This document shows, in pieces, positions 11,590-64,000 of a stretch of DNA of 64,000 nucleotides (within the stretch, counting starts at the first letter, position 1; each line of letters begins with the position of its first letter). This stretch comes from Octopus vulgaris (taxonomy: Eukaryota). Position numbers and translations under genes: made by a program. The notes under the pieces are model-generated. The model was not told the origin of the DNA and made no database searches. It worked only from the letters and a program-made list of their open reading frames with translations. The DNA lies in contig OX597839.1 of NCBI GenBank assembly GCA_951406725.2, positions 26,660,001-26,724,000 of the forward strand, given 5' to 3'.

Positions 11590-13925
11590 TCATTCATCTT
11601 ATGACCTGTGTTCTATGATCTATGCTAAGTCTAGTCATTCATCTTATGACCTGTGTTCTATGATCTGTGCTATATCTAATCATTCATCTTATGACCTGTG
11701 TTCTATGATCTATGCTAAGTCTAGTCATTCATCTTATGACCTGTGTTCTATGATCTGTGCTATATCTAATCATTCATCTTATGACCTGTGTTCTATGATC
11801 TGTGCTATGTCTAGTCATTCATCTTATGACCTGTGTTCTATGATCTATGCTATATCTAATCATTCATCTTATGACCTGTGTTCTATGATCTGTGCTATGT
11901 CTAGTCATTCATCTTATGACCTGTGTTCTATGATCTGTGCTATGTCTAGTCATTCATCTTATGACCTGTGTTCTATGATCTGTGCTAAGTCTAATCATTC
12001 ATCTTATGACCTGTGTTCTATGATCTGTGCTATGTCTAGTCATTCATCTTATGACCTGTATTATATGATCTATGCTAAGTCTAGTCATTCATCTTATGAC
12101 CTGTGTTCTATGATCTGTGCTAAGTCTAGTCATTCATCTTATGACCTGTGTTCTATGATCTGTGCTATGTCTAGTCATTCATCTTATGACCTGTGTTCTA
12201 TGATCTATGCTATAGTCTAATCATTCATCTTATGACCTGTGTTCTATGATCTGTGCTATGTCTAGTCATTCATCTTATGACCTGTGTTCTATGACCTGTG
12301 TTCTATGATCTGTGCTATGTCTAGTCATTCATCTTATGACCTGTGTTCTATGATCTGTGCTATGTCTAGTCATTCATCTTATGACCTGTGTTCTATGATC
12401 TGTGCTATGTCTAGTCATTCATCTTATGACCTGTGTTCTATGATCTGTGCTATGTCTATCATTCATCTTATGACCTGTGTTCTATGATCTGTGCTATGTC
12501 TAGTCATTCATCTTATGACCTGTGTTCTATGATCTGTGCTATGTCTAGTCATTCATCTTATGACCTGTGTTCTATGATCTATGCTAAGTCTAGTCATTCA
12601 TCTTATGACCTGTGTTCTATGATCTGTGCTATGTCTAGTCATTCATCTTATGACCTGTGTTCTATGATCTGTGCTATGTCTAGTCATTCATCTTATGACC
12701 TGTGTTCTATGATCTGTGCTATGTCTAGTCATTCATCTTATGACCTGTGTTCTATGATCTATGCTATATCTAATCATTCATCTTATGACCTGTGTTCTAT
12801 GATCTATGCTATTCTAATCATTCATCTTATGACCTGTGTTCTATGATCTGTGCTATATCTAGTCATTCATCTTATGACCTGTGTTCTATGATCTGTGCTA
12901 TATCTAATCATTCATCTTATGACCTGTGTTCTATGATCTGTGCTATGTCTAGTCATTCATCTTATGACCTGTGTTCTATGATCTGTGCTATATCTAATCA
13001 TTCATCTTATGACCTGTGTTCTATGATCTGTGCTATGTCTAGTCATTCATCTTATGACCTGTGTTCTATGATCTGTGCTATGTCTAGTCATTCATCTTAT
13101 GACCTGTGTTCTATGATCTGTGCTATGTCTAGTCATTCATCTTATGACCTGTGTTCTATGATCTGTGCTATGTCTAGTCATTCATCTTATGACCTGTGTT
13201 CTATGATCTGTGCTATATCTAATCATTCATCTTATGACCTGTGTTCTATGATCTGTGCTATGTCTAGTCATTCATCTTATGACCTGTGTTCTATGATCTG
13301 TGCTATGTCTAGTCATTCATCTTATGACCTGTGTTCTATGATCTGTGCTATATCTAGTCATTCATCTTATGACCTGTGTTCTATGATCTGTGCTATGTCT
13401 AGTCATTCATCTTATGACCTGTGTTCTATGATCTATGCTAAGTCTAGTCATTCATCTTATGACCTGTGTTCTATGATCTGTGCTATGTCTAGTCATTCAT
13501 CTTATGACCTGTGTTCTATGATCTGTGCTAAGTCTAGTCATTCATCTTATGACCTGTGTTCTATGATCTGTGCTATATCTAATCATTCATCTTATGACCT
13601 GTGTTCTATGATCTGTGCTAAGTCTAGTCATTCATCTTATGACCTGTGTTCTATGATCTGTGCTATGTCTAGTCATTCATCTTATGACTTGTGTGCTATG
13701 ATCTTTCCTCATTCATCTTATGATCTGTGCCATGTCTAGTCATTCATCTTATGACCTGTGTTCTATGATCTGTGCTATGTCTAGTCATTTGTCTTATGAC
13801 TTGTGTTCTATGATCTGTGCTAAATCTAGTCATTCATCTTATGACTTGTGTGCTATGATCTTTGCTCATTCATCTTATGATCTGTGCTATGTCTAGTCAT
13901 TCATCTTATGATCTGTGTTCTATGG
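11590..13925. repeat. 45-bp minisatellite, ~52 visible copies
   Basis: Unit CATTCATCTTATGACCTGTGTTCTATGATCTGTGCTATGTCTAGT; highly homogeneous, degenerating at the right edge. Confidence 0.98.
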
Positions 13926-16532: not shown

Positions 16533-17310
16533 CACATTCACACAAACACAGAGACAGACAAATCCCTTATATGCATACATACATACATATATGCAAATAT
16601 TACCACACACACTGACAAACTCATCTTTAAGTATATATGTACAAACATACATACTCCACATATGTATGTATATAGCTATGTACATCCATATATCTATTCA
16701 TCCACCCACCCACTCACAGGTACATACACACGCACACACATGTATGTATGTGTATATATATATATATATACATACATGTGTTAATGTATATACAAATATG
16801 TACACATACATATACATACATACAAGCATATGTGTATATGTGAGTATATCTACATCCATTCATCCACCCATCCACCCACCCACCCATCCATCCATACATA
16901 CATACACACACACACACATATACATACATGCATTCAATACATACATATATACATAGGGAAACATCTATTGAGGCTGGCAGATTGTTATCTCCCCTTCCCC
17001 CATACACACCCCTATCGTTCTACCCTGTTATATATACCCACACATTTCTCAGGGCTATGTAAACACCCCTGCAGTAGACCTCATTTTTTTTCTTCCCCTA
17101 CTGTTTGTTTTTATTGCTCTTGTCTCCCAACTGCAGTCATATATTTACAGTTCTTAGACACTCACTCACTAGATGTGGTCAGGAGTGTAACAAGAAGAAG
17201 AAGAAGAATCCTTTCTACTGAAGGTACAAGGCTTGAAATCTGGGGGGAGGTGGATAGTCAATTACATCAATCCCCAGTACTCAACTGGTACTCAATTTAC
17301 AGAGATGTAA

Positions 17311-17699
17311 AGGCCGTTGCCAGCCTTGCCTGGCCCCGTGTCGGTGGCACGTAAAAAGCACCATCCATTCGTGGCCGTTGCCAGTGCCGCCCCGACTGGC
17401 CTCCGTGCCGGTGGCACGTAAAAGCACCATCCGTTTGTGGCCGTTTGCCAGCCTCGCCTGGCTCCCGTACCGGTGGCACATAAAAGCACCATCCATTCGT
17501 GGCCGCTTGCCAGCTCCGTCTGGCACCTGTGCGGGTGGCACGTAAAAAGCACCCACTGCACTCACGGAGTGGTTAGCGTTAGGAAGGGCATCCAGCCATA
17601 GAAACACTGCCAGATCAGACTGGGTCTGGTGCAGCCTTCTGGCTTCCCAGACCCCAGTTGAACCGTCCAACCCATGCTAGCATGGAAAACGGACGCTAA

Positions 17700-17731
<32 letters not shown>
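17311..17731 (+). mobile_element. Family B element with ~60-bp internal tandem repeats and (TGA)n tail
   Basis: About 4 units of GGCCCCGTGCCGGTGGCACGTAAAAAGCACCATCC.TTCGTGGCCGTTGCCAGCCTCGCCT, then the family B tail. Confidence 0.85.
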
Positions 17732-17732
<1 letters not shown>

Positions 17733-17778
17733 TACTCGCATAGCAAGTGATTTGATCTGAGATCGTGTGCTGAAACGA

Positions 17779-18055
17779 AAACAATTGCAGCGTGGAAGGT
17801 GTTTGTAAGCCATTTAAGAAACACACAAAAGCCATTCGATTCACTTCAACATTTAAGTTTAATTTGTCAAAATATTTTCGTCGCTTTGAGACCGCGACCT
17901 GTTCATTGATGCAGCACAGATTTTTGTCAGTGAACAGGTTGCGGATTTTAGCGCCGAAAATATTTTGACAAATTAAACTTAAATGTTGAAGTGAATCGAA
18001 TGGCTTTTGTGTGTTTCTTAAATGGCTTACAAACACCTTCCACACTGCAATTGTT
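17779..18055. repeat. ~130-bp near-perfect inverted repeat (15-nt spacer); each arm has a hammerhead-like fold
   Basis: Arms ~17779-17910 and ~17926-18055 are reverse complements with few mismatches. A fragment of the same family lies at ~19238-19285. Confidence 0.9.
17923..17972 (+). ncRNA. Hammerhead motif with G3-C8 swapped core
   Basis: Stem I TTTGTCA/TGACAAA; core GTGAACA; stem II (GTCGC/GCGAC in the mirror arm); GAAA; palindromic ATAT stem III; UUU triplet. Confidence 0.6.
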
Positions 18056-18070
18056 GTACTCAATTTACAG

Positions 18071-18371
18071 TTCTGTATTTAAGAGACGAGGAATTATGTA
18101 CATTATTTACATTCGACGGATATTTGTCCTCATCTTGTTTGTTGTTAACACACCGTTTCGGCTGATATACCCTCGGCTACTAACCTCAAGGTTCCGAGTT
18201 CGATTCCAGGCAGTGACCTGAATAATAATAACATTGAAGAATATGTTAGGAATGAGAATCCAGGTTTGAAATTTCCCCCAAGACACCTGATGAGGGCTGG
18301 AGGGTATATCAGCTGAAATGTTGTGTTGACAACAAACAAGATGAGGACAAATATTGGTCAAATGTAATGTA

Positions 18372-18402
<31 letters not shown>

Positions 18403-18456
18403 TCAAAAAATACCTTAGGAATGAGAACCCAGGTTTGAAATTTCCCAAAGACACCT
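18071..18456 (+). mobile_element. Composite element: inverted terminus + tRNA-like head + HHR tail + partial tandem tail (copy 1)
   Basis: 18071-18174 is the reverse complement of the element's own 3' end; GGCTACTAACC...GAGTTCGATTCC (B box); HHR at 18282-18327; tail restarts at ~18400. Confidence 0.75.
18282..18327 (+). ncRNA. Minimal type I hammerhead motif
   Basis: GACAC-CTGATGA-G-GGCTG..CAGCT-GAAA-TG-TT-GTGTT. The inverted copy at ~18145-18174 shows CAGCC-GAAAC. Confidence 0.7.
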
Positions 18457-18487
18457 TATATTTATGTGTGTATGTATGTGCGTGTCA

Positions 18488-18996
18488 GTGGCCTCCGTGC
18501 CGGTGGCACGTAAAAAGCACCATCCGTTCGTGGCTGTTGCCAGCCTCGCCTGGCCCCCGTGCCGGTGACACATAGCACCATCCGTTCGTGGCCGTTGCCA
18601 TCCTCGCCTGGCCCCCGTGCCAGTGGCACGTAAAAGCACCATCCATTCGTGGCCGTTGCCAGCCTCGCCTGGCCCCTGTGCCGGTGGCACGTAAAAAGCA
18701 CCATCCGATCGTGGCTGTTGCCAGCCTCTGTTGGCCCCCGTGCCGGTGGCACGTAATAAGCACCATCCGTCCATGGCCGTTTGCCAGCTCCGTCTGGCAC
18801 CTGTATGGGTGGCACGTAAAAAGCACCCACTACACTCACGGAGTGGTTGGCGTTAGGAAGGGCATCCAGCCGTAGAAATACTGCCAGATCAGACTAGGCC
18901 TTGTGCAGCCTTCGGGCTTCACAGACCCCAGTTGAACCGTCCAACCCATGCTAGCATGGAAAACGGACGCTAAATGATGATGATGACGATGATGAT
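18488..18996 (+). mobile_element. Family B element with 5-6 ~60-bp internal repeats
   Basis: Same unit and tail as 17311-17731. Confidence 0.85.
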
Positions 18997-19282
18997 ATAT
19001 ATATATTAGGAGCACTCTGTCAGTTACGACGACGAGGGTCCCAGCTGATACGATCAATGGTACAGCTTGCTCATGAAATTAATGTGCAAGTGGCTGAGTA
19101 CTCCACAGACATGTGTACCCCCTAACGTAATTCTCAGGGAGATTCAGCCTGACACAGAGTGTGCAAAAGAAACCGATAGAATAAGTACTGGGCTTACAAA
19201 GAATAAGTCCCGGGGTCGATTTGCTCGACTAAAGGCAGTTTGTAAGCCATTTAAGAAACACACAAAAGCCGTTCGATTCACT

Positions 19283-19380
19283 TCTACTATAGCCTCGGAC
19301 CAACCAAATCCTTGTAAGTGGATTTGGTAGACGGAAACTGAAAGAAGCCTGTCGTGTGTGTATGTATGTATGTATGTATG

Positions 19381-61858: not shown

Positions 61859-62339
61859 CCCCCTCCCTCCCGTTGTGTGTATGTATGTGTGTCTGTAGCT
61901 AGGCAATATATGATTGCGTTGTATGCATTGTGATGTCTGTTCGAGTGAATACTTTAGATCTGTGTATCCGTGTATCTGATTGCTTCAGGTTTTTGACCTC
62001 CGTCTTAGTCTTGATACACTGATTAATCTCATTAGTCTAGTTTTAGTCAATAGAATTCCTGGCCTTCACCCTGGCTATCTATGGTTCCTTTTCATCAATA
62101 TAACTACTCCCCATATGGATTTGAGACAGGGACCCATCATACTCATCTTCTCCGAATTCTACCCCTACCCACATACTTTCATTAGAGAATTTTCTAGAAA
62201 TTCCATTGCTCAGTTCTTCCTTGGTCCTTTGTCTAAGTAAGAGGTCGAGGTAGAGAAAGGCAGGAACATGTGGTGTTGTGGCTTTCATGAAGCATCATTA
62301 AAGGAAAATAGCTCAAGAATTGTGTTTTGTATAATAAAC

Positions 62340-63165
62340 ACGAAGAGGTAGGGGCTGAAAAGTTTCTGGCTTTGAGGGTCTCACAAAAAGCTTGGTTGAA
62401 GGCCCAACTTTCTGATTTCTTTTACAGGGCTTAGAAAAGCTGAAGAACCCCTGCAATAAATGTGTGAATCTGAGAGGGGAATATGTTGAATAAAATCATT
62501 ATTAACTGATTCTCCTGTATTTTCTTTTACCCAAAACCAGGAACTTTTCAGAACCCTCCCATGTATCCACACACACACGCACATGAGGAATGCTGTGAAG
62601 TTTATAGTTTTAAGGGCATCGCAAAAGGCCTGATTGGAAGCCCAACCTTCTGACTTCTTTTTTGGGGTTTACAAAAACTGAAGGACCCCTGCAATAAATG
62701 TGTGAATCTGAGAGAGGAGTATGGTGAATAAAACCATAATTAACTGATCCTCCTGTTCTGCTCTATATTTAAGAGATGAGGAAATATGTATATTATTTAC
62801 ATTATTTACATTTGCCCATGGGCATATGGCATACTGATTAAGAGCATGGGCTACTAACCCCAAGATTCTGAGATCGACTCCAGGCAGCGACCTGAATCAT
62901 CATCATCATCATTTAGCGTCTGTTTTCCATGCTAGCATGGGTTGGACGGTTTAACTGGGGTCTGTGAAGCCGGAAGTCTTCATCAGGCCCAGTCAGATTT
63001 GGCAGTGTTTCTACGGCTGGATGCCCTTCCTAACGCCAACCACTCCGTGAGTGTAGTGGGTGCTTTTTACGTGCCACCTGCACAGGTGCCAGACAGAGCT
63101 GGCAAACGGCCACGAACGGATGGTGTTTTTACGTGCCACCGGCACGGGGGCCAGGCGAGGCTGGC

Positions 63166-63210
<45 letters not shown>

Positions 63211-63423
63211 TAATAACATTGAAAAATACCTTAGGAATGAGAACCCAGGTTCAAAATACCCCCAGGACACCTGATGAAGGGATGAGGGTATATCAGCTGA
63301 AACGTTGTGTTAGCAACAAACAAGATGAGGACAAATATCCATCAAATGTAAATAATGTAAATAGCGATCCTCTTGTATTTTCTTTTATTCAAAGCCAGGA
63401 ACTTTTCAGCCTCACCCCTTGTA
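62340..63423 (+). mobile_element. Two internally deleted mariner-family elements, the second split by a nested insertion
   Basis: GLEKLKNPCNKCVNLRGEYVE* resembles the mariner transposase C-terminus; TIR-like GCTGAAAAGTT.CTGG / CCAGGAACTTTTCAG. The second copy runs 62582-62755 and resumes at 63365. Confidence 0.75.
62756..63362 (+). mobile_element. Composite tRNA-head + HHR-tail element (copy 2), containing a family B insertion (62898-63165, -)
   Basis: Inverted terminus 62756-62814; tRNA-like head 62820-62897; (AAT)n; HHR GACAC-CTGATGA...GAAA-CG-TT-GTGTT at 63266-63311. Confidence 0.78.
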
Positions 63424-64000
63424 AATATGGGCACAGGCATGTGGTTAAGAAACTTGCTTCCCAACCACATGGTTTTAGGTTCAGTCCCACTGTGTGGCAC
63501 CTTGGGCTGATCAAAGCCTTGCGAATAGATTTCGTTGATGGAAACTGAAAGAAGCCCATTGTGTGTGTGTGTGTCGCTTTCCTTATCTTTGTCTCTGACT
63601 CACCAGCTCTCTTTATCTTACCCTTTAACCCACCCTCCTATCCCTATCCTTTTAGTTTTCCATTAACTGGCACAAAGCTACCCTTCCAATACTACTCTCC
63701 CCCTCCTCTCAATTGAGGTTTGGTGACCCTGTTGGTGATGGTTCCATGTAAAAAGCACCAAGTACACTCTGTAAAGTAGTTCGCATTAGGAAGGGCCTGC
63801 AGCTATATACTCTGACTATAGACCCTAGTGCAGCTCCTCGCCTTGCCAGTTCCTGTCAATCGTGTGGTGAGGAAGCAAACTTCTTTTATTCATTCAATTG
63901 GCCACAAGGGCCTTACAAAAAAAGGGAGCAAGCTTCTTACCACATAGCCACACCTGCATCTATAAATATGATTGACTGATAGCCATTAAAGCTTTCTTTC

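Follow-up and report, generated by a model that had tools for sequence, protein, structure and literature searches.

SINEs are usually defined as LINE-dependent, and the octopus families OK, OR1 and OR2 are, reportedly since the work of Ohshima and Okada in 1994, counted among the tRNA-derived SINEs. tRNA-derived SINEs with LINE partners have a tRNA-like head, a composite body, many copies and a target-site duplication (PMC3531059, PMC5786205), all of which are shared by the octopus element described here; they differ from it at the 3' end, which in the octopus element is like that of a Penelope-like element (PLE) and not LINE-like. The schistosome repeats Sm-alpha and Sj-alpha are similar in another respect, being short and non-coding with an RNA polymerase III (Pol III)-type tRNA part followed by a type I hammerhead, and are described as tandem units that an active hammerhead releases (PMC6765202, PMC4918200), whereas the octopus element is dispersed and its hammerhead motif is minimal. 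The octopus insertions also bear the inverted ends and tails of PLEs, for which the accessible portions of the same two papers hold no mention in the schistosome repeats. Animal non-LTR retrozymes are likewise short, non-coding and hammerhead-bearing, with a proposed origin from PLEs (PMC7229834; 10.64898/2026.07.22.740005), and one octopus copy has a comparable unit of ~170 bp; however, their definition requires units in tandem, every one of them with a hammerhead, which are absent from the window, and a tRNA head does not figure in the definition in the accessible text of these sources.

Endonuclease PLEs and their non-autonomous derivatives (PMC8557442, PMC3846280, PMC11167929) have in common with the octopus element, as far as the available sections describe them, an inverted 5'-truncated copy, a 30-40-nt tail, a duplication of ~10 bp, a junction palindrome, a minimal hammerhead motif and a partial second unit; the octopus element differs in having no reading frame and, instead, a tRNA-like head with A and B boxes. 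PLE insertions are 5'-truncated, and next to the copy there is often a second one, inverted and likewise 5'-truncated, together with a tail of 30-40 bp at one end, an arrangement which, according to the same source, is not seen with non-LTR elements (PMC8557442). Duplications of 8-10 bp, a 31-bp tail and palindromes at the inverted junction have been recorded in PLE cases, and the pseudo-LTRs alone are reported to mobilise unrelated sequence in trans (PMC3846280). A PLE protein has been shown to cut both strands, to initiate reverse transcription at two points, which mark the limits of the tail, and to make use of uncut RNA (PMC11167929). Butterflies are mentioned as having short non-autonomous Penelope elements (PMC6685494), and tRNA-bearing non-autonomous LTR elements have been described (PMC10886601). 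A repeat survey of Octopus vulgaris counts 190 families of Penelope-like elements along with many SINE families that are unclassified (PMC13282606).

The window examined here, which is the whole 64-kb stretch of Octopus vulgaris DNA to which all positions refer, contains many microsatellites and repeats and no coding sequence; no informative reading frame was seen among the 121 frames of at least 120 residues found over its whole length. ARAGORN predicted 0 tRNA genes in it, searches against Rfam gave nothing at the gathering score across the window and chance-level matches in four sub-regions, and scans with exact patterns returned 0 loci in metagenome, prokaryote genome and viral contigs. 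A long tandem array of ~33-bp units occupies 11594-13739, beside a 100-N gap. Positions 62575-63440 were compared with the contigs of three public runs and with one raw-read run (four of 24 runs); the latter, in which 33 of 12.9 million reads matched, was excluded, as its single-read depth over the terminus and the head may come from one read or from two. For one run, the comparison leaves out the (AAT)n repeat. Fifteen contig joints were listed, with 634 others beyond these, and no contig among those listed spans all of 62575-63440. Every part of the nested locus is heavily repeated in all three contig sets, which is the sole use made here of summed contig depth, a quantity distinct from copy number.

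The outer layer of the locus is a MITE of ~225 bp, which we take to be of the mariner type on the basis of its terminal inverted repeats and TA end only, the features in which it resembles Tc1/mariner MITEs. It is split into a left part (62582-62756, forward strand), 82% identical to the adjacent copy over 165 bp, and a right part (63366-63423, forward strand), 88.6% identical to 62508-62551, which carries a terminal inverted repeat and TA at 63422-63423. The adjacent MITE (62339-62565, forward strand; terminal repeats alike at 20 of 24 positions) is uninterrupted and was used as the empty-site reference. These two copies, the sole two in the window, lie side by side, 16 bp apart, with an (AC)n run between them. 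The left terminal repeat of the split copy is decayed (9/11 match), with CA at 62582-62583 where TA is expected, and its right terminal repeat matches the left end of the adjacent copy in 22 of 23 bases; both copies have CA on the left and TA on the right, and the consensus of the loose contig ends also has TA. No transposase was found in the window. Directly after the MITE lies a very common repeat with a tRNA-like start (63425-63560), for which there are more than 20 matches in the window.

The original prediction described a mariner relic split by a composite element, with duplicated flanks near 62746 and 63366, and the duplication was found at these positions: the 11-mers GATCCTCCTGT (62746-62756, forward strand) and GATCCTCTTGT (63366-63376, forward strand) agree in 10 of 11 bases and have an insert of 609 bp between them. 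The chance of at most one mismatch in 11 is p ~7e-6 for a fixed site, or 1.4e-4 when 21 offsets are allowed, both values being computed on the 11-mer shifted by one base. The majority letter of the contigs at 63373 is C, in agreement with the left 11-mer, and the single mismatch is therefore a later change. The 11-mer is present once, at 62508-62518, in the adjacent intact MITE, with which the split MITE, after removal of the insert and one 11-mer, aligns over 198 columns (166 identical, 32 mismatches, 0 gaps). Among the 15 contig joints listed for the three public runs, 13 skip the insert, and two joint rows skip exactly 620 bp, that is, the insert and one duplication, in 35 contigs (6+8+5 and 4+8+4); one contig set also has a joint from 62803 to 63324, listed without a stated kind. 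The contigs with the 620-bp skip represent further members of the MITE family, which lack the insert. Together with the single 11-mer next door, these contigs rule out that the duplication is intrinsic to the MITE.

The inner layer consists of a repeat, hereafter family B (62896-63167, reverse strand), which is 92.2% identical to 17445-17716 and 18718-18990 and is presumably an RTE-type SINE, a label given for its resemblance to such SINEs in the (GAT)n tail and the 5' truncation. It is 5'-truncated inside its 62-bp internal repeats, with the (GAT)n tail pointing at the tRNA-like head of the composite, and was inserted after the first AAT (62895-62897) of the (AAT)n linker of the composite; the remainder of the linker, (AAT)15, lies beyond it at 63166-63210 (forward strand). 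The linker is short and whole in the other copy of the composite in the window (copy 1) and interrupted in the present one (copy 2), which bears out the earlier statement that family B had split the composite in this linker. A separate duplication for family B is not resolvable because its target is (AAT)n. Identity drops from the inside outwards, being 92.2% for family B, 88-92.5% for the composite and 83.8% for the MITE, a gradient from few pairs that fits the nesting order. The three-layer nest is thus confirmed, and nesting by itself is ordinary in a repeat-rich genome. Family B copies at 17310-17716 and 18489-18990 contain variable arrays of the 62-bp internal unit, and copy 1 of the composite has family B on either side. 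A motif of family B gave 0 matches in the supplement of PMC5786205.

The left end of the 609-bp insert is an inverted, 5'-truncated copy of the 3' end of the element (62757-62814, reverse strand), in which 62794-62814 is identical to the forward end at 63343-63363 (21/21) and 62757-62793 forms an extension of about 35-37 nt, of the type of the Penelope tail, absent from the forward end. Such an inverted terminus lies directly upstream of the head, in head-to-head orientation, in both copies in the window, with a length of 58 bp in copy 2 and ~105 bp in copy 1; the extensions of the two inverted termini match at 38 of 42 positions and are missing from both forward ends. A perfect palindrome of 12 bp (62813-62824) marks the head-to-head junction of copy 2 and is absent at that of copy 1; palindromes with arms of at least 6 occur at 19 of the 41,894 non-simple positions of the window. 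The forward 3' end of copy 2 (~63363) has no simple-repeat or poly(A) tail and is followed by two further bases before the right copy of the duplication. Contigs numbering 456 and 587 in two sets stop matching at 63363 and diverge after ~5 shared letters, so that 63363 is the end of many forward copies, which lack the extension. In the inverted terminus, the additional ~35 nt form the 'tail' signature of PLEs, and this is the substantive finding beyond the earlier reading of the composite as one unit.

That reading, in which the inverted terminus, the tRNA-like head and the hammerhead part were inserted together, is itself upheld, as one duplication encloses all three, no separate target-site duplications bound the parts, and the order of inverted terminus, head, linker and hammerhead body is repeated in copy 1. 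Separate insertion of the parts is consequently rejected. The head belonged to the copied RNA, given that the inverted piece precedes it and that the single duplication encloses everything. A role for LINEs, either through twin priming that gave the inversion or through a LINE-mobilised SINE with an (AAT)n tail that met a separate PLE fragment, is very improbable. LINE twin priming inverts the 5' part of an element without repeating its 3' end; it is rejected for the present insert, in which the inverted piece duplicates and prolongs the 3' end. A chance meeting could be imagined, since PLEs are said to favour microsatellites and ATT sites (PMC8557442, PMC11167929) and could thus land in the (AAT)n tail of a SINE, but it is at odds with an inverted terminus upstream of the head in both copies and with the one duplication around the whole. 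The 609-bp insert is probably a SINE-like element with a tRNA head that owes its copying and insertion to PLE enzymes. Every end feature of the insert fits PLE integration, and the middle element behaves as a non-autonomous PLE that has a head of the SINE type. It would not be filed as a classical LINE-dependent SINE, since its end structure appears to be of the PLE type. An autonomous PLE sharing the 3' end was not found in the window, and the motif gave 0 matches in the Naiad/Chlamys supplement.

Copy 1 of the composite (18066-18459, forward strand) comprises an inverted terminus with tail (~18066-18174), a 5'-truncated head (18175-18220), the linker and a body extending to ~18372, and shows no flanking duplication and no junction palindrome. 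It continues into a second unit (18372-18459), which follows at a period of 169 bp, begins at (AAT)n, lacks a head and is cut off precisely where the hammerhead core would begin. Directly to the left of copy 1 lies a second, unrelated element (17731-18061) with the same end architecture and no tRNA head: its inverted arms are 98% alike over 106 bp, the left arm has ~42 extra bases, a 7-bp duplication is present at 17731-17737 and 18055-18061, and a degenerate hammerhead-like stem-loop is located near the centre. A third piece lies at 19238-19287. The 17731-18061 element is likely another PLE-type insertion.

The body of copy 2 (63211-63363, forward strand), 89% identical to copy 1, is likely derived from a PLE pseudo-LTR and contains a minimal type I hammerhead motif (63266-63311, forward strand) with CUGAUGA at 63271-63277 and GAAA at 63299-63302. 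Stem I is 5 bp long, one extra nucleotide follows position 9 and a palindromic CG occupies 15.2-16.2; the minimal hammerheads of PLEs are described with this extra nucleotide and with palindromic 15.2-16.2, and as having low, dimer-dependent activity (PMC4209133). Each of the two copies has the core pattern once and the rest of the window lacks it, giving a count of two against an expected 0.12, which 1 of 100 shuffles reached; the hammerhead region had no match in Rfam. The predicted cut lies after 63306. Stem II retains three of six pairs in copy 2 and all six in copy 1, the majority letters of the contigs at 63281-63283 being those of copy 1. The partner of G10.1 is U instead of C in the two forward copies, and C in the inverted piece of copy 1. 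Thus, of the 'hammerhead tail' originally proposed, the core motif is present, but stem II is broken and the hammerhead of copy 2 is predicted to be inactive; the term is accordingly used here for a sequence motif and not for a demonstrated ribozyme. A short open frame of ~20 codons runs from the linker to the TGA of the hammerhead in all three units (63206-63271, 18221-18290 and 18390-18458). It was considered as the end of a PLE protein and dropped, as no longer protein sharing one version was found in a weak search that covered no cephalopod assembly.

The second unit of copy 1 at a 169-bp period, the similar tRNA and hammerhead repeats of Schistosoma (PMC6765202, PMC4918200) and the proposal that animal retrozymes are PLE derivatives (10.64898/2026.07.22.740005) together favour a retrozyme of the schistosome type, in which tandem units would be cut by the hammerhead into monomers that circularise and reinsert. 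This is nevertheless quite improbable here, as two complete hammerheads in tandem are absent from the window, the second unit of copy 1 ends at the core, the motif appears to be of the minimal, low-activity PLE type, and the insertion ends map to the tail region and not to the predicted cut at 63306.

The tRNA-like head (62820-62894, forward strand) has an A box at 62827-62837 (9/11), an anticodon-type loop at 62851-62857 and a B box at 62872-62881 (10/10), scored against A- and B-box consensus patterns. With 62827 as tRNA position 8, the 45 nt between positions 8 and 53 are as in a tRNA, the loop corresponds to positions 32-38 and the B box to positions 53-62. Pairs of A and B boxes at tRNA spacing occur five times in the window, compared with 0-2 times in ten shuffles. 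The head gave no ARAGORN or Rfam match, its acceptor and D stems are unpaired, and the parent tRNA is not recognisable; loss of the cloverleaf is common in old SINEs. Free folding of the head and hammerhead regions gave no significant fold (z -0.44 to 0.64). The insert of copy 2 ends a few bases at most from tRNA position 1, and its sense strand has no run of four T, which is compatible with Pol III transcription. Pol III transcription is thus a prediction, for which the boxes and the end of the insert near tRNA position 1 provide the grounds.

Both heads in the window are joined to a hammerhead body (two of two copies), and the linkage rests on these two copies, the head-to-body joint not being among the 15 contig joints listed. 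Summed contig depth is lower for the head (0.27-1.39 million) than for the body (1.4-7.7 million), and many body copies may lack a head; a lower head depth would result from either 5' truncation or units devoid of a head, such as that in copy 1. These observations bear on a further explanation, which sees in the element a non-autonomous derivative of a PLE or retrozyme, and in its tRNA-like head a passenger rather than the head of a Pol III SINE. An old SINE head upstream of the pseudo-LTR at one source locus would then have been carried along by Pol II read-through, and mobilisation by PLE would still hold. The reported mobilisation of unrelated sequence by pseudo-LTRs (PMC3846280), the headless second unit of copy 1, the excess of body over head depth and the poorly kept cloverleaf are all in its favour. 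It is, however, unlikely, as the majority letters of the contigs at three box positions (62834, 62837 and 62878; among the 40 of 162 rows listed) shift towards the A- and B-box consensus, and as the insert of copy 2 ends close to tRNA position 1 as if the RNA started there.

The events leading to copy 2 may be reconstructed on the basis of a tRNA-headed element moved by a PLE, for which we infer the PLE partner, the Pol III transcription and a two-primer reaction. The head, the (AAT)n and the PLE-derived 3' part would be transcribed by Pol III from the internal A and B boxes, and the reverse transcriptase/GIY-YIG protein of the PLE would bind the 3' part and cut both target strands 11 bp apart. 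Two cDNAs would then be primed at two start sites ~35 nt apart, of which one would run to the head and give the forward copy without tail, and the other would stop after ~58 nt and give the inverted copy with tail, the two joining head-to-head at the palindrome. Uncut RNA would be the template because hammerhead cleavage would remove the head. Family B was inserted later, into the (AAT)n linker.

The combination of a tRNA and a hammerhead in one short repeat is already known from schistosomes. No report of a PLE-mobilised tRNA SINE or of the family of the composite was found in the literature searched, Repbase, Dfam and most subscription journals lying outside the search. The family may be among those of the Octopus vulgaris survey (PMC13282606); the body motif had 0 matches in its supplement, a short table file. 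The chances are about even that the composite represents a high-copy, Pol III-transcribed family of cephalopod tRNA SINEs with PLE, not LINE, as its partner.

If this is true, PLEs would be a third engine for mobile elements headed by small RNAs and a different partner class for SINEs, linking SINEs with the tRNA-hammerhead repeats of schistosomes and the animal retrozymes. The element would also provide a natural minimal substrate, with a body of ~170 nt plus the tail, for the two-ended priming of PLEs, and the nest supplies a clean and independently verified target-site duplication, which is often missing from PLE insertions. As a large natural data set on PLE integration, short copies by the thousand whose inverted ends vary could address such open points as the two cDNA starts, their joining and the length of the duplication, and would define the smallest cis sequence needed by the PLE protein.
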